Source of the DNA: a candidate division WOR-3 bacterium | GTDB lineage: Bacteria > Hydrothermota > 32-111 | DNA: 64,000 nucleotides | Assembly (NCBI GenBank): GCA_039804105.1 | Contig: JBDRZU010000001.1 | Span: 448,001 to 512,000, forward strand | Direction: 5' to 3' | Part shown: positions 24,001 to 36,000 of the stretch, piece by piece | Layout of the letters: every line of letters begins with the position of its first letter | How positions within the stretch are numbered: position 1 is the stretch's first letter | Position numbers: made by a program

Positions 24001-27000
24001 ATTTTTTGCTGATACTACACATACATATCCACTTCTTATAAATCCAGGAGATAGTGTTAGGTATGGGACGAAGGCATTTTCAGTGGATACAGGTATGGTA
24101 GAGGGTAATTTGAGGGTGTATACGAACATATACAATGTAAAGGCAGACACGGTGTTGTTGAATGCACACTTTGGAAAGCCATTGAGGATAGATTCAGCAA
24201 AAGCATTTGATGGAAGCGTATATGGAGCTGGAATTGATGCTGATGATTATGTAGTGTTATATTTTAACCAACCGACGAATGGATTTAACATTACATTGTG
24301 GAACATAAACGATGTATTAAAATTATCAAATGGACATATATGGACAGATGGATTTGATCTTATTGATTCAGCATACTGGAATCCATTTAAAACAAAACTT
24401 ATAATAGAACTAAGTACAACGATAACACCACCAACGATAAGTGTAGGTGATACGATATATCCTGATTCAATGAGTATCATAGGTACATTGAATTCATTCA
24501 GATGTCATTATCCAGTTGTATTAAGAGGCACATTTGATATAACAGGGATAGAAGAGGAAGAACTAATTACTAAAAATCTGGATAAAAAGGTATCAGAGTT
24601 AAATGTGATGTTCAAAGAAGTTAGATATAGAGTCATTACAGATAATAATGAATTTTATATATACGATATCACAGGAAAAGTTATTTACAATGCAAAGCAT
24701 ATTCCTTTAGGCAATCATACATACAAGTTTGATCAACTTCCATCAGGTATATATTTTGTTAAACTAAAAGATGGAGATACTCAAATAAACAGAAAAGTTT
24801 TTGTGATAAAATAATATTGAATCAAATTCGCAAAACTTTAAAATATTTGTCAGCACAATAAAAAGGGGTAAAAATTACCCCTTTTTTAGTTTCTTATACT
24901 TATTCCCAAAACTCTCAAACTCCACTATTGATGAGCATTTTTGAATGTTTATTCCCAAAAATGTCAAAAAGTCAAGCACCGTCCCCGAAGAGGGTAACAC
25001 ACTAAAAGAAAGCAAAGTTAGTTTGTTTTTTCATTGATTTTTCTTTTGGAGTTAGTTTCATATTTACTTTTTGTTATTGGAGACTGAAAAAAATCATCAT
25101 TTAAAAATTTTAATAAATTTTCTAAGTTTTCCTTTTCAGAAGGAAAAATGATCTTTTTATTATCTTCATCGAACATGGTTTCGAGTTCAAAATTTTTTGC
25201 ATAATTTTTTGCATTATCAAAATTTTTTGTATTACTATAAATTTTGTCTATTATTTTATTGTTAATTATTAAATGTAGTTTTTTTCGCATTCTTGAATTT
25301 AAAATACTTATATCAAATGATTTATCTATTTGAATTTTATTATTTTTTTTAAAAAAATCATTAATTTCATCATCAGTCGCTTCTCTATAATAATTATTTA
25401 AGTTACTAAATATTTTTGATGCATTGTGATATGAAGGAAATGATAACTTTTTTCCCTCTTTTTGATAAAGAGCATCAATTTTAGAATCAATTATTAAACC
25501 TGCTTTTTCAAATTTGCAAAAGGTGTTTTTTGAGTATATTAAAAGCCACTTACTAGGTTCAATTATTTTTCTACTATCAAAACATTGATATGATATTTTA
25601 TCTTCATAATCAAAAAAAATAGTTTTAATATCTCTAATTTCATCTTTTTGCAAAATTTCTATGCTTGTAGGATTAAAATCCGTATAAGGGTTTTGAAAAT
25701 TTTCAATATATAAAACTTGGTTTTCTTCAGGTTTATATTCCACTGAAAATTCAATAAATTCTAATTTAAAAAACTTATCAATAAAATTTTCCATATAACT
25801 AGTTAGTCCCTCTTGCAATTTCTGTGTTATACTTATTTTTTTAATTTTATTATCTTTTTTTAGTATTGCATATATATTCATACTTTACTCCTTTTCTAAT
25901 AAAATGTAATTAGTTAATTGAACTACATTCTTTATTTGTTTGCTGTTTATAAGCATTTTTCTTGTAATCAAAATAAAAGTAGACCCTTCTACTAATTTTA
26001 TCTCGTATTGATGGTAACCCAATAAACTCAACAATGGATTAAAATGATATATATTTATGGTAAGAACGATAATGAAAAATAATACTAATAAAAACAATAC
26101 CATATGAATTTCTATTCCCAGCAAAGGTATAAGATAAGTAAAAATAAAAATAACACTTTCATTATCAGCAATAGATATTTCTTTTATAGATACAGGGATT
26201 ATTTCTAATTTTATCTTTGCAAGGTCTATGATAAGTTTTAAAATGAATAATAAAATAATTGCCAATATAAAATATAAGATCCCTTCCCTAAAATTCCAAG
26301 ATTTACTAAATGATTTAAACCAAAGGGTTAGTAAAACAGGTGAAAGTGATGTGGTAACTAGAATTACATGAATAAATTTACTAAACATAATTTATCCTCC
26401 TTTTTATTCTTTTTACATATACATCCCTCCCACCATCTCATCCAATTCTTTCTGAATTTCATTTAACTTTATTTCTGCTTCTTCTTCAGTTATTTTACCT
26501 TCAAATTTTTGTCTTTGGGTTGTATATGCCTGGTTAAATATGTCTTCAAATTGTTTTAATTGATCAGATGTTGGAATGATGATGGGAAGTTGACGAATAT
26601 CGTTGATTTGTAAATTAACACTTTGGTTGATAAATGTTTTAAGAAAATCAAAAAGAAATCTAGAATTTAATAAACACACAAAATATTTGGCTGATATAAA
26701 ATTTAAAGTAGAATATAAAGACATAGAGCCCACATCATTAATAGTTTTTTCTTTTATCCTGCATTTTATAAACATACTTTTTTTTCGAATAGGAGTTGAT
26801 ACATTAGTCCAGCAAAACCCTTCCCTGAAATAGAATTGATAACCTTGCCATCTTGCTTTTGGATTAGATTGTAATATTTTTACATTCTCTTTGCTCCAAT
26901 CAATATAATATGGTGTTGGGGCATACCAGCGGTTGCCATCTTTGTCGCCTTTGTCATAAGGAACAAAGGTTTTTTCTCCGTTAATTCCATTAAGTTTTTC

Positions 27001-33000: not shown

Positions 33001-36000
33001 CATCAGTTGCGATTCCAATAAGAATTCTAATTTTCTCAGTTTTTTCAAGTGAATCATAAATCGTATGAAAACCACTTATTCTAAAATAACCAACAAGACA
33101 ATCAAAATACTTACTATCTCTAATTAAAGTTTTAAATCTCTCTGTTAAAGTCTGTCCATTTTCGTTAATTATAAAAGTTAAATCGTTTTTACTCATGTTG
33201 TATACTCCTTTAGGCTATTATTTCTAAAAAAATTTTAACAATAAATAATACATCGGGAAACTCAAAAATTCTTCTCCTCCACTATTTCTTTATCAAAAAC
33301 CCTCATTTTGCAAAATATTTAAAATTTTATCAATTATTTTACCTAAAAAATTTTTAAATTTCAACAAAAAAGTGAATCTTAATGATAGGGGAAGATTTTG
33401 GGATAAAATTAAACGGAGAGGCCGGGATTTGAACCCGGGGTAGCGGTATTCCCACTACAACGGATTAGCAATCCGCCGCCTTCGACCACTCGGCCACCTC
33501 TCCGTAAAAAAATTTAGTATATAAAGAATCAAACTTTTGTCAATCAAAAATATAATTCAAACTCAAAAGGATGTGGTCTTTTCTCCATTTCAAGTGCTTC
33601 TTTCTCTTTGTATTCAATATAGCCGTTTATGAGATCCTCTGTGAATACACCACCTGCAAGTAGATAATCGTGATCTTTTTTGAGTTCTTCAAGTGCTTCA
33701 AGAAGGTTTGTCGGGCATGAGTCAATTTTTTCGACAATCTTTTTATCCATCTTTTCAAGATCCTCTTCATAAGGACCAAAATTGTTATCTTTGAGTGAAA
33801 TCTTGTTTTTAATTCCATCGATTCCTGCCATGAGCATTGCTGCTGTTGCAAGGTATGAGTTACATGTTCCATCTGGTGGTCTGAATTCAATCCTTTTTTC
33901 ACTTTCACTCGTTGCATATTTTGGAATCCTTATCGCTGCTGATCTGTTTGCAAGTGAGTAGAAAAGTTTTACAGGTGCTTCAAATCCTTTAACGAGTCGT
34001 TTGTATGAGTTGGTTGATGGATTTGTGAACGCAAGAAGTGATTTACCATGTTTCAAAAGTCCTGCAACATAATACTCTCCGATTTCAGAAAGTCCACCAT
34101 AACCGTTACCGAAGAAAAGATTTTTGTTTCCGTTGAAAAGATGTTGATGGAAGTGCATTCCGTTTCCTGGCATTCCATAAAGTGGTTTTGGCATAAATGT
34201 TGCCGAAAGGTTGTTCTGATAACAAACATTCTTTATGAAATATTTGATTATCTGAATATTATCACCTGTTGCAAGAAGTGGATACCTCTTGATTTCAATC
34301 TCGTTCTGTGCTGAACCAACCTCATGGTGATGGTATATCAAATCTATTCCATAATCGATTATCACTTTTGATATTTTACTTCTAATATCTGTAAACTTAT
34401 CTTTTGGAGGAATCGAATGGTAACCTGCTTTTTTCATCAAAAATTCACCACTCTCATTGATATAAGAATCATCAAATCCAAACTTGCCTTCATAAGATTC
34501 AATTTTATATTCAGCGAGATTTTCTTTGTTGTTAACAACAACTCTATCAAAAATATAGAATTCAAACTCAGGTCCAAAAAGAACATCTGTTGCAATCTTC
34601 TCTTTTTTAAGATATTCCTGCGCTTTCAAAGCAACAGTTCTTGGATCCCTTGAATAGTCCTTTCTTGTATCTGCTTCTTTTATAAAACAGAAATATGATA
34701 TAGTTGGTTCTTCAAAAAATGGATCCTCAAAACCTGTTTCCTCATCGATCATCAAAACCATATCTCCACCTTCAACACTCTTAAAACCTGGGCAGCTTGA
34801 TGAATCAAAACCAACTCCATTCTCTTTTATTTCATTGTAATTTTTTGCTGGAAGTGTTAAATGGTGGAAATTCCCAACAAGATCTGTAAATTTTAAATCT
34901 ATCCATTTAAAATCTTTATCCTTTATATCGACCTTTTTCATCTGTCCTCCTTTTGTAAACCTTATATTATATATAAGAAAATTTTTAATTCAATTATTTT
35001 TTGTCAGGTGAAATTAAACTTTCAAGTCGTCCTTTTATAGCCTGATGTAGATATTGTAAAACATATTTTGTGGGTTTTCCTCTTTTTTCTCTAACAAGTG
35101 TTAAAGGAATCTCTGCTGTTAATCTCAAAAAACCTGTTAAAGCGAATAGCACCTGTTCACCCGATAAATTTAAATGAAAAATTGCTAATGGTTTTGGAAT
35201 CAAAATACTTGAAACCATCATCGAAAACATCATAGCAAGTCCTGAGATTGTTCCCTGTATCGCTGTGTAAATTTGTCTTTTCTTATCGGGTGCTATAGAT
35301 AAAACAAAATTTGTTGCAACTATGTTCGCTCCTGACCACATCATTCCTGATGTGAACGCTTCAAAATAGATTATCCACTTTGTTTGTTCTGTTGCAAAAA
35401 CCCAAATCAAAGGGTTTAAAGCACCAAGGATCAGAGCGAATCTCATCGCTGTTCTGTTTCCAAATCTATCGATAAAAACTCCCCACGGTCTTAAAAAATA
35501 TAAGGCGGAAATAGTGCTTATAGTTCCATAGATCTGAACCTCAAAAAGGGACATTTTTAAATTTTTTAGCATAAACGGCTGCCAGAAAGGAGCGCCAACT
35601 CCAACAGCAAGCATCCACCAAACATTATAAACGAGAAACCTTAAAAAATTTTTATCTTTAAAAGGTGAAGTCAAAAACTCCTTTATACTCTCCTTTTCAA
35701 TCTCCTTTTCCTTTTCGGGCTGGTTGTTTAAAATTTTTACCCCGATTATTCCCATAACTGTTGCAACAAAGAAGATGAAAAGAAAAACATAGGAAACATT
35801 GTGCTCTTTGAAAATAGAAAAATTTTTCAAAAATTTTGCATCGTTTTTGGTTAAAAAGTCAAAGAGGATTGAAAATATATATCCAGTAAGAAGTCCAACA
35901 ACCATCAAAATCTGAGATCTTCGTGAGAAAAATCTTCCCCTGATGTCTATTGGAATCATATCTGAAATCCAGGCGATCCACATATTAGCACTTATCGTCT

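Follow-up and report, generated by a model that had tools for sequence, protein, structure and literature searches.

A Kiwa pair as probable cargo of a predicted ATP-dependent restriction operon in a candidate division WOR-3 bacterium

The genome of a hot-spring bacterium of candidate division WOR-3 contains two operon-like sets of four defence genes, one of them (copy 1) within the window, the 64,000-nucleotide stretch analyzed here. In each set an HKD-nuclease/SNF2 helicase fusion and an Eco57I/MmeI-like methylase, together referred to as module A, are followed by the Kiwa genes kwaA and kwaB. This four-gene layout is genuine and recurrent, not a product of chance clustering, and each island is probably a composite of two separable defence modules, module A and Kiwa. 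In the reading that we favor and consider reasonably probable, an ATP-dependent restriction-like operon carries Kiwa as embedded cargo, and layered defence is the result. The word "embedded" is used loosely, because Kiwa is terminal in the operon and does not lie between core genes.

Gene content and chromosomal site

As the preliminary description had reported, there are two four-gene sets with a shared gene order. Copy 1 consists of four ORFs, all on the minus strand, running from HKD-SNF2 through methylase and KwaA to KwaB across window positions 25018..33196 (Table 1); copy 2, at C1:1272246-1280518, lies on the plus strand with an identical gene order. The reported identities between the copies were reproduced by BLASTP (HKD-SNF2, 32%; methylase, 28%; KwaA, 65%; KwaB, 50%), as were the PADLOC values for KwaA, KwaB, REase_MTase_IIG, HKD+Snf2, and DrmD that are given below. 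The genes of copy 1 are joined by an 8-nt overlap and then by spacers of 24 nt and 3 nt, and those of copy 2 by a 94-nt spacer and then by overlaps of 16 nt and 4 nt, the last value in each copy being the junction at which kwaB follows kwaA on the same strand. This spacing is operon-like in both copies and suggests that the genes are probably cotranscribed. No terminator-like hairpins were found at the gene junctions on the minus strand of the copy 1 operon; the two matches both lie inside genes. The operon promoter is presumed to lie in the leader, where a sigma-70-like match at 33364-33336 agrees at 10/12 positions, in a scan whose total (60 sites versus 48 expected from shuffles) does not stand above the shuffles. 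At the other end, the hairpin between the convergent genes is likely a two-way terminator. The ~30-nt intergenic repeat directly after KwaB is present in at least 40 copies genome-wide, two of which lie just upstream of copy 2.

Table 1. Features of the copy 1 locus, in window positions
Feature	Coordinates	Strand	Basis or remark
Variable segment: two T9SS-tail genes and the four-gene operon	22627..33395		blastn; absent from two congeners
Hairpin flanked by A-run/T-run	24860..24886		Terminator scan, 12 pairs; between convergent KwaB and T9SS genes
Dispersed ~30-nt intergenic repeat, one copy	24957..24990		Directly after KwaB
KwaB, DUF4868-type DNA-binding protein of Kiwa, 287 aa	25018..25881	-	PADLOC, Foldseek
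KwaA, small Kiwa membrane protein, 167 aa	25885..26388	-	PADLOC, match to solved KwaA
Eco57I/MmeI-like N6-adenine methylase, 1195 aa	26413..30000	-	N-terminal nuclease-like domain, putative C-terminal specificity region
HKD(PLD)-nuclease/SNF2 helicase fusion, 1067 aa	29993..33196	-	Pfam and PADLOC; predicted restriction motor
Leader between tRNA and first operon gene	33197..33412	-	Operon promoter presumed here
tRNA-Ser(GCT)	33413..33504	-	ARAGORN; orthologous tRNAs at the same site in G001, G002, and G004

The copy 1 helicase matches the Pfam families PLDc_2 (1.3e-10), SNF2-rel_dom (5.1e-11), and Helicase_C (7.9e-24). PADLOC assigns HKD+Snf2 to both copies (8.7e-45 over the full length of copy 1 and 8.6e-30 for copy 2), along with DrmD (5.3e-35 and 1.1e-36, respectively). 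The HxK...GSxN nuclease motif of the helicase is intact, and residues H140, K142, G161-N164, GLGK 284-287, D356/E357/H359, and Q760/R761/G763/R764 are invariant in six Kiwa-linked helicases.

The methylases match Eco57I (6.4e-34 in copy 1 and 2.1e-38 in copy 2) and N6_Mtase (6.4e-10 in copy 1) in Pfam and REase_MTase_IIG in PADLOC (9.1e-294 and 1.2e-172), and the copy 1 translation contains both the NPPY motif and the SAM-binding motif DPAVGSGAF. An alignment of the two proteins extends over only about the first 800 residues, and beyond it the putative target-recognition regions at the C terminus are unrelated. Copy 2 matches TaqI_C (8.7e-9), and residues 830-1195 of copy 1 gave no family match, with only a weak stretch aligning to the BREX PglX chain 8c45. 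The N-terminal part was modeled with a pLDDT of 88; a Foldseek search with this model returned nothing, and its nuclease-fold matches are weak (Z 5.1-5.2, to the N-terminal nuclease domain of DrdV and to BspD6I). At the (D/E)XK position, copy 1 has KLK (K76-L-K78) and copy 2 has KIQ, and relatives have EVK or EIK. The preliminary description called this gene a Type IIG methylase-nuclease. The methylase part of that label is borne out by the motifs, but the nuclease part is doubtful, because the (D/E)XK motif is kept in neither copy and the gene is almost constantly paired with an HKD-SNF2 gene bearing an intact nuclease motif.

KwaA was recognized by PADLOC in both copies (1.9e-43 and 4.3e-46), and the copy 1 protein, with three to four hydrophobic segments, matches the solved KwaA 9mrg (E 0.0046); its NCBIfam score of 44.6 bits lies under the cutoff of 100. 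KwaB was likewise recognized in both (2.5e-57 and 7e-54), and copy 1 KwaB gave no Pfam match at E 0.01. The model of copy 1 KwaB has a pLDDT of 91, and its best six Foldseek matches are all solved KwaB structures (9nyu, 9mtn, and 9mrx; E ~1e-9, probability 1.0, TM 0.48-0.56), with the next match at E 0.055. Three of the 271 genomes of the phylum, source genome included, have a KwaB of this type, in agreement with the rarity ("2 of 271") given in the preliminary description.

The segment that holds the copy 1 operon is variable among relatives. According to blastn, it is replaced by ~33-48 bp in G002 (L156) and G001 (L157), and homology to the congeners resumes at window positions 33395-33408. 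In G004 (L155) the site is occupied by another insert, 4.4 kb long, that encodes a 335-aa ORF, an N6_N4 methylase, and GmrSD. Because the variable segment begins just downstream of the tRNA 3' end, the tRNA-Ser(GCT) gene is an integration hot spot.

Recurrence of the layout and histories of its halves

The preliminary description had found no relatives' loci. Such loci are now available: the complete layout was identified in six loci (two in the source genome, two in congeners, one in an Aquificaceae MAG, and one in a Thermaurantimonas MAG), and a partial layout was identified in three short contigs that end inside the methylase gene. In the KwaB tree, which like the SNF2 tree was built by a quick method, a clade of 12 loci (SH-aLRT 99) contains nine in which Kiwa lies behind the methylase, two uninformative loci that start inside kwaA, and one exception in which Kiwa lies behind an AAA_13/PDC-S06 ATPase. 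Kiwa is therefore methylase linked in 9 of the 10 informative loci, which come from the window's phylum, Aquificota, Bacteroidota, and metagenomes and form a small and possibly biased sample, because the search for them used a single peptide pattern and covered one genome per species plus JGI metagenomes. The sister clade (SH-aLRT 99) comprises six loci inside Type I operons, with Kiwa between hsdM and hsdS; remoter Kiwa loci from the same searches stand alone or in other contexts. In several loci the methylase and kwaA are separated by 4, 12, or 24 nt or overlap, and the G001 locus has an extra Hypoth_Ymh gene between them. The flanks of copy 1 and of the Aquificaceae locus consist of housekeeping genes with no defence island, and copy 2 has a DUF6036/AbiEii-like nucleotidyltransferase and an AbiJ-like gene within a few kilobases.

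The helicase-methylase pair is autonomous, widespread, and mostly without Kiwa, which is at odds with the idea of the four genes as an obligate machine. The helicase is present in 54 of 401 sampled Bacteroidia genomes, and in 28 of 31 Bacteroidia loci the methylase adjoins it, 25 times in the same order. Kiwa was found in none of 33 module A loci (31 from Bacteroidia and 2 from other phyla; in 8 of the 28 the methylase reaches the sequence end, so that a downstream Kiwa is possible there) and in none of four plasmid loci of the pair. Both states exist within the genus: Kiwa is missing from a G002-type pair (SNF2 94%) that G001 also carries and from a copy-1-type pair in G002. Elsewhere the 3' slot holds other cargo, including ABC/SMC-like ATPases (one followed by a short pAgo), McrBC-like pairs, DUF3800, AbiEii, TIR/bSEFIR, and PDC-M19A, and DUF1016/PDC-S02 and others are found in a slot between helicase and methylase. 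The C-terminal tails of the Kiwa-linked methylases are also found in pairs without Kiwa.

The two halves of the layout do not share one history. Identities for SNF2, methylase, KwaA, and KwaB are 36, 42, 98, and 69% between the G002 and G001 loci, 66, 57, 50, and 44% between copy 2 and the G001 locus, and 65, 82, 81, and 63% between copy 1 and the Aquificaceae locus. In AU tests, for which the groups were defined after the identity matrix was known, each half rejects the grouping of the other (p = 0.00097 and 2.5e-8). On the SNF2 tree the Kiwa label must change at least four times, and starred branches force every one of these changes; helicases linked to Kiwa are found at four separate positions among those without it. 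The G001 and G002 loci share a chromosomal site at which the upstream half has been replaced, and their methylase 3' ends are 85% identical over 120 nt. Because the halves differ in history by identities, AU tests, the SNF2 tree, and the pairs without Kiwa in congeners, the earlier view that one island had diverged into two copies is not supported.

Proposed mechanism and rival explanations

Module A most likely acts in ATP-dependent restriction-modification, with the functions divided between two genes, an enzymology suggested by its domains and motifs. The methylase subunit would recognize a short asymmetric site and mark it in host DNA; where the mark is lacking, the SNF2 motor would be engaged and the HKD nuclease would cut, two copies of the nuclease being needed for one active site. 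Kiwa would be cargo in the 3' slot of module A, probably transcribed with it, and recombination would exchange the two modules, with other pairs holding other defence cargo in the same slot. Such recombination would account for one Kiwa clade behind at least four module A lineages. Carried in this way, Kiwa would add a second defence layer acting on the same incoming DNA, and the two modules may be synergistic.

The 9/10 linkage seen from the Kiwa side exceeds what would be expected of passive cargo, and Kiwa may depend on restriction. It is possible, though rather unlikely, that one Kiwa lineage is a dedicated, functionally dependent partner of ATP-dependent restriction, with one clade tied to HKD-SNF2/methylase pairs and its sister to Type I systems. 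Such a lineage may act as a membrane-anchored guard against DNA-mimic anti-restriction proteins or may share such inhibitors with the nuclease. If this were true, selection for partnership would have left its trace in the repeated reassembly of the layout from different module lineages, and under shared inhibition neither system would be fully silenced. The broader proposal that the four genes form one integrated machine, or that the Kiwa clade depends on the restriction module, is in our view unlikely. Kiwa could be a guard like PrrC for Type I, firing when a phage DNA mimic disables the restriction complex; membrane-bound KwaB could hold entering DNA for the HKD-SNF2 motor; or both modules could titrate the same DNA-mimic inhibitors, as has been demonstrated for Kiwa together with RecBCD. 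The Type I linkage of the sister clade, the re-formation of the layout on at least four module A lineages, which points to selection for the pairing, spacers in several loci that are too short for an obvious kwaA promoter, and the published rescue from Gam by RecBCD are all in keeping with dependence. However, 98% identical KwaA proteins sit beside helicases and methylases that are only 36% and 42% identical, which is hard to reconcile with a specific protein interface. The methylase tails are not special to Kiwa-linked loci, an extra gene can intervene before kwaA, one clade member lies behind the AAA_13/PDC-S06 ATPase instead, and module A does without Kiwa in all 33 other loci and in two congeners.

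Pure hitch-hiking would give Kiwa only stability and a promoter and would involve no interplay in function, with the repeated pairing arising from recombination at conserved methylase 3' ends; the operon would be hard to lose because loss of the methylase would expose the host to the nuclease. The conservation of these ends between diverged loci, their widely shared tail motifs, the many unrelated cargo genes in the slot, and the replaced upstream half at the G001/G002 site fit this explanation. It nevertheless leaves unexplained the fidelity of the Kiwa clade and its sister to restriction-type carriers when remoter Kiwa loci stand alone or elsewhere, and postsegregational killing by the helicase-methylase pair is an assumption; we consider it distinctly improbable. 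Ordinary defence-island clustering followed by one duplication within the source genome has next to no chance of being correct. The defence-like neighbors of copy 2 are what clustering would predict, but the flanks of copy 1 and of the Aquificaceae locus are housekeeping only, the layout recurs in other phyla, the copies diverge far more in module A than in Kiwa, and neither copy is as close to the other as to relatives elsewhere. Recurrence, the identity matrix, the AU tests, and the SNF2 tree all contradict it.

Comparison with known defence systems

Type IIG/IIL enzymes (MmeI and DrdV) and Type ISP enzymes (LlaGI type) combine a gamma-class adenine methylase and a specificity region in one chain, and the logic of Type ISP unites nuclease, motor, methylase, and specificity region. 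The present methylase shares the gamma-class domain and has a putative in-chain specificity region, and its N-terminal part is weakly DrdV/BspD6I-like. The overall logic of Type ISP is also shared, but the functions are split over two genes, the motor subunit carries an HKD/PLD nuclease, and (D/E)XK is not conserved in the methylase chain. DISARM class 1 shares profile matches to DrmD (SNF2) and DrmMI as well as a PLD nuclease. These matches are far under the NCBIfam cutoffs (for example, 148 bits versus 610), and no DrmA or DrmB/DUF1998 was found in the flanks, so we rejected this identity. Type-2 BREX-related systems, which are DUF499 centered and Hma-like, are described as combining an SNF2 helicase that has an HKD nuclease fused at its N terminus with an N6-adenine methylase (Rakesh and Krishnan 2026, PMC12839542), a combination also seen here. 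However, the methylase here is a long one of the Eco57I/MmeI type that bears a putative specificity region, and Pfam scans at copy 1, copy 2, and the Aquificaceae locus, flanking genes included, detected neither the DUF499 AAA+ ATPase nor DUF3780; this identity was also rejected.

In Escherichia coli Kiwa, as described in a preprint (10.1101/2023.02.26.530102), membrane KwaA senses phage entry and releases KwaB, which binds incoming DNA and blocks replication and late transcription; the DNA mimic Gam blocks KwaB, and the coresident nuclease RecBCD restores protection ("inhibitor partitioning"). The passages of the preprint consulted here do not mention linkage to restriction genes. The present pair shares the kwaA-kwaB order, a small multipass KwaA, and the KwaB fold with the E. 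coli system (9mrg, 9mrx, 9nyu, and 9mtn), but KwaB is only 14-16% identical to solved KwaB, and a profile of the present Kiwa clade found no match among PDB sequences. Both proteins are also shorter than their E. coli counterparts, and the pair is not free-standing but lies directly behind a methylase gene.

A parallel in organization is "guilt by embedding" (Payne et al. 2024, 10.1101/2024.01.29.577857), in which Hma, BREX, DISARM, and Type I R-M operons are described as carriers of other defence systems, among them PrrC, which is found in Type I operons. In the main text of that work the word Kiwa is absent, although its supplements may list it, and the two-gene HKD-SNF2 and IIG-like methylase carrier is not among the four carriers that it names. 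Kiwa here also sits at the 3' end of the operon instead of between core genes. With that caveat, the hallmarks of embedding are present at our loci, namely, a modification-based carrier operon with defence genes on the same strand, tight spacing, and alternative cargo in the slot of relatives, and the PDC-S02, PDC-M19A, PDC-S06, and AbiEii cargo, among others, belongs to families that the same work describes.

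Anatomy and chromosomal setting of the two four-gene sets

Copy 1, the four-gene set inside the window, is encoded on the reverse strand. The family assignments and E-values given for it in the preliminary description were reproduced with Pfam and PADLOC. A second set with identical gene order (copy 2) was confirmed at C1:1272246-1280518, as were the identities of 32, 28, 65, and 50% between the helicases, methylases, KwaA, and KwaB of the two copies, respectively (BLASTP). Because the alignment of the two methylases covers only the first ~800 residues, their specificity regions differ. 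In both copies the genes overlap or are separated by spacers of 3 to 24 nt, the sole exception being a 94-nt spacer in copy 2. A promoter scan did not rise above shuffled sequence (60 sites versus 48 expected), and its best match (33543-33516) lies just upstream of the neighboring tRNA gene and not of the operon's first gene.

Open reading frames of the copy 1 operon
Feature	Position in window	Strand	Type and length
HKD(PLD)-SNF2 fusion	29993-33196	-	ORF, 1067 aa
Long Eco57I/MmeI-like methylase	26413-30000	-	ORF, 1195 aa
KwaA	25885-26388	-	ORF, 167 aa
KwaB	25018-25881	-	ORF, 287 aa

The six best PDB matches to a KwaB model (pLDDT 91) in a fold search were all solved KwaB chains (E about 1e-9, probability 1.0), with the next match at an E-value of 0.055. 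A profile of the KwaB clade gave no match among PDB sequences; the likeness to solved KwaB came from the fold search. KwaA showed a weak sequence match to solved KwaA (E 0.0046).

The preliminary description had left room for the ordinary clustering of defense genes as an alternative, and the flanking genes speak against it, as copy 1 lies outside any defense island. Upstream are tRNA-Ser(GCT) (33413-33504) and glnA, and downstream are two secreted-protein genes with T9SS tails, followed by a sigma-factor cluster. The segment 22627-33395, which comprises the two T9SS-tail genes and the four-gene operon, is missing in two congeneric genomes (G001 and G002), where a few tens of bases adjoin the same tRNA. 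The closest relative (G004) holds a different 4.4-kb insert at this site, consisting of a 335-aa unknown ORF, an N6_N4 methylase, and a GmrSD nuclease. The site is thus variable among congeners, and therefore the copy 1 operon occupies a hot spot for defense cargo, marked by tRNA-Ser(GCT), and was gained within the genus.

Other features lie around the two sets. A dispersed intergenic repeat of ~30 nt, with at least 40 copies in the genome, occurs at window positions 24957-24990, right after KwaB of copy 1, and twice just upstream of copy 2 (C1:1271974 and C1:1272173). The two T9SS-tail genes by copy 1 (window 22818-24561) share 81% DNA identity with part of a large LVIVD-repeat T9SS gene by copy 2 (5870-7619 of L001, the copy 2 region); they occupy opposite ends of the two operons, and the likeness may be a coincidence within a large gene family. 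A DUF6036/DUF2204/AbiEii-like nucleotidyltransferase gene is found 4.8 kb upstream of copy 2 (L001 2917-3474). AbiJ-like genes (AbiJ_NTD4, Abi_C; PDC-S32) occur 3' of Kiwa in copy 2 (L001 18372-19229) and straight after KwaB in the G002 locus (L081 8788-9777).

Recurrence of the layout and histories of its halves

Relatives' loci had been reported as not found, and the layout does recur elsewhere. A scan of genome contigs with a two-sequence KwaB alignment gave none, and a 38-sequence alignment recovered 22 loci in species genomes plus 49 metagenome loci; their gene content was read by tblastn and Pfam. All four genes, 63 to 81% identical to those of copy 1, are present in an Aquificaceae MAG, flanked by a glycosyltransferase gene on one side and DUF2851/HSP20 genes on the other. 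A Thermaurantimonas MAG carries the four genes with a DUF1016 nuclease gene sited between helicase and methylase. Three short contigs, each ending inside the methylase gene, encode methylase-KwaA-KwaB, and a distant metagenome locus (L059) encodes an SNF2 fragment, an Eco57I-type methylase, KwaA, and KwaB. Among 271 genomes of the window's phylum, the KwaB type of copies 1 and 2 was found in 3, all in one genus, and both Kiwa-bearing congeners (G001 and G002) hold complete four-gene loci. Two of these loci have peculiarities. The methylase of the Aquificaceae MAG changes frame ~90 codons from the gene end (L002 9201-9464), through either a frameshift or an assembly error, and G001 has a Hypoth_Ymh/PD-Lambda-3_B-like (HEPN-type) gene between the methylase gene and kwaA (L082 2269-2991).

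The preliminary description treated the two sets as diverged copies of one island; identities and approximately unbiased (AU) tests show that their halves differ in history. Identities for helicase, methylase core, KwaA, and KwaB are 65, 82, 81, and 63% between copy 1 and the Aquificaceae locus, 66, 57, 50, and 44% between copy 2 and G001, and 36, 42, 98, and 69% between G002 and G001. Across the six complete loci, helicase and methylase together rejected the grouping of G001 with G002 (AU p = 0.00097), and KwaA and KwaB together rejected that of copy 2 with G001 (AU p = 2.5e-8), both groups having been named after the identity matrix had been seen. Two stretches match between the G001 and G002 loci, namely, the flank upstream (82% DNA identity) and the final ~120 nt of the methylase gene (85%); the loci therefore occupy a single chromosomal site at which the upstream half has been replaced. 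G001 carries a second pair of the G002 type (helicase 94%, methylase 85%), with no Kiwa in the 1.4 kb left downstream on the contig, and Kiwa is absent from a copy-1-type pair (about 51%) in G002. In a tree of 41 helicases, made like all but the six-locus trees by a quick search, the six Kiwa-linked ones are scattered over four separate, well-supported positions among helicases that lack Kiwa. Therefore, one Kiwa clade has joined at least four carrier lineages, or very many losses have occurred.

Carriers, cargo, and proposed layered defense

In a quick KwaB tree of 50 loci, those with the four-gene layout group in one clade of 12 (SH-aLRT 99). Of the 12, nine are linked to the methylase, two, beginning within kwaA, are uninformative, and one lies behind an AAA_13/PDC-S06 ATPase; the 10 informative loci are a small sample that came from a single search pattern. 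The sister clade (SH-aLRT 99) contains 10 loci, 6 of them inside Type I operons (hsdM-kwaA-kwaB-hsdS and variants) and 4 on contigs without a restriction gene beside Kiwa (two of ~2 kb and two whose sequence stops at or within the Kiwa pair). Farther out in the tree, most Kiwa loci stand alone or have another setting. The exception in the clade of 12 (L005 3684-9295) has QueC and a radical-SAM gene farther upstream of the ATPase and a transposase fragment downstream. Two further loci, from MAGs titled Thermodesulfobacteriota and Candidatus Dadabacteria, have the same genes upstream of Kiwa, namely, an AAA_15 ATPase, an unknown gene, an Orn/DAP-decarboxylase-like gene, and DUF3326 (L010 3736-9347 and L012 4679-9219); L010 also has a transposase-like gene splitting its ATPase and a Type I hsdM-hsdS pair after Kiwa.

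An HMM built from six Kiwa-linked helicases (E <= 1e-60) matched an HKD-SNF2 helicase in 54 of 401 evenly sampled genomes of the Bacteroidia, the class of Thermaurantimonas. We compared 33 loci: the best 31 from Bacteroidia and two others, namely, a second helicase locus in the Aquificaceae MAG and one in another MAG. In 28 of the best 31, a same-family methylase adjoins the helicase, directly downstream on the same strand in 25; of the remaining three, two do not extend far enough on the side concerned, and one lacks a methylase. The pair is present in both additional loci as well. KwaA or KwaB was matched in none of the 33, in 8 of which the methylase reaches the sequence end so that Kiwa downstream is not judgeable, and Kiwa is likewise absent from four plasmid loci with the pair. 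The genes 3' of the methylase are varied and defense-like, often with gaps of 0 to 28 nt. They include ABC/SMC-type ATPases, with a GHKL ATPase, a DUF488/PDC-M19A gene, or a short pAgo behind them, as well as McrBC-like pairs, DUF3800, AbiEii, TIR/bSEFIR, and ADP-ribosylglycohydrolase genes. DUF1016/PDC-S02, PDDEXK_3, 23S-rRNA-IVP, KilA-N, Bro-N, or Schlafen-type genes fill the slot between helicase and methylase. In one Bacteroidia locus (L131 1-3213), the pair is immediately followed by an ABC-type ATPase gene and a short pAgo gene (PADLOC pAgo 1.2e-105, incomplete at the sequence end). With such varied contents, the pair thus behaves like the carriers of embedded defense genes (Hma, BREX, DISARM, and Type I systems) described by Payne et al. 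(10.1101/2024.01.29.577857). The HKD-SNF2/methylase pair serves as a further carrier of embedded defense cargo, short pAgo included, and Kiwa is one cargo among many.

According to the Kiwa preprint (10.1101/2023.02.26.530102), KwaA senses membrane distortion as phage enters, and KwaB binds incoming DNA and stalls both replication and late transcription. In that work, the DNA mimic Gam blocks KwaB except when RecBCD is also there to take a share of it. On this mechanism, the restriction motor and Kiwa would both target the incoming DNA, and would do so equally early in infection. RecB and AddA family searches of our genome, 85% complete by marker count, gave only sub-threshold matches to one 1105-aa UvrD-like ORF. 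The simplest reading, which we consider probable, is layered defense in which both modules would be expressed from one transcript, with Kiwa as portable cargo. A real functional dependence of this Kiwa clade on restriction-type carriers would fit the strong fidelity of the clade and its sister to such carriers, but we regard it as unlikely. Module swapping argues against a specific interface, and 98%-identical KwaA beside 36%-identical helicases in G001 and G002 argues against specific protein contact. So does the methylase C terminus, where no tail peculiar to Kiwa-linked enzymes was found because the same tails occur in Kiwa-less pairs. Pure hitch-hiking of Kiwa is a still less likely reading, and chance clustering plus duplication is highly improbable.

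What is understood of Kiwa comes from E. coli operons in which it stands by itself; in the loci compared here, an entire branch of the family lies inside or behind restriction operons, and one clade is restriction-linked almost without exception. This arrangement provides a concrete, testable case of how two defense layers acting on the same incoming DNA are wired. It can also test whether the sharing of an inhibitor between Kiwa and RecBCD extends to restriction enzymes. Congeners supply natural controls, with the same Kiwa on different carriers, a carrier that has Kiwa in one case and lacks it in another, and an integration site empty in two genomes. Earlier publications cover Kiwa itself, the embedding of defense genes in operons based on modification, and restriction-like systems that contain HKD-SNF2 helicases. 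Our literature search, with subscription journals and bioRxiv supplements (those of the embedding preprint included) outside its scope, found no paper linking Kiwa to HKD-SNF2/methylase or Type I operons. Within that scope, three points are apparently undescribed: that Kiwa keeps to restriction carriers at the level of whole clades, that the HKD-SNF2/IIG-like pair serves as a carrier, and that the four-gene layout has been re-assembled repeatedly.

The predicted carrier enzyme and known systems

The nuclease motifs HxK and GSxN, Walker A, DExH, and motif VI of the helicase are kept in all six Kiwa-linked loci, and the methylase retains SAM-binding and NPPY motifs. The N-terminal 270 residues of the methylase gave a confident model (pLDDT 88), for which Foldseek found no PDB match at E <= 0.001. 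Against nuclease folds (the DrdV N terminus, BspD6I subunits, and a putative restriction endonuclease), this model reached weak Z scores of 5.1 to 5.2, below the level of proof. The aligned (D/E)XK position reads K-L-K in copy 1, K-I-Q in copy 2, and E-V/I-K in many relatives. We infer that the carrier is an ATP-dependent restriction-modification enzyme encoded by two genes, with cleavage performed by the HKD domain of its motor subunit. Of the earlier label "Type IIG methylase-nuclease," the methylase part is borne out by the motifs, and the Type IIG nuclease part is doubtful, as neither copy keeps the (D/E)XK motif and the gene is almost always paired with an HKD-SNF2 gene. In this family, genes that current tools label single-chain Type IIG enzymes belong to a common two-gene system, the other gene being the HKD-SNF2 partner.

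The carrier is not DISARM, because DrmA and DrmB are absent and profile matches fall far below the cut-off. MANTIS (Gao_RL), in the part of its description available to us, is a four-gene AAA+/methylase/helicase-nuclease system and differs from the pair. Hma was also rejected because HmaA, as far as the accessible text describes it (PMC11232893), bears a PD-(D/E)XK nuclease at its C terminus and is partnered with DUF499. The carrier is akin to the Type-2 BREX-related systems described by Rakesh and Krishnan but lacks their DUF499 ATPase and DUF3780 gene, and it would be a split analogue of Type ISP enzymes.
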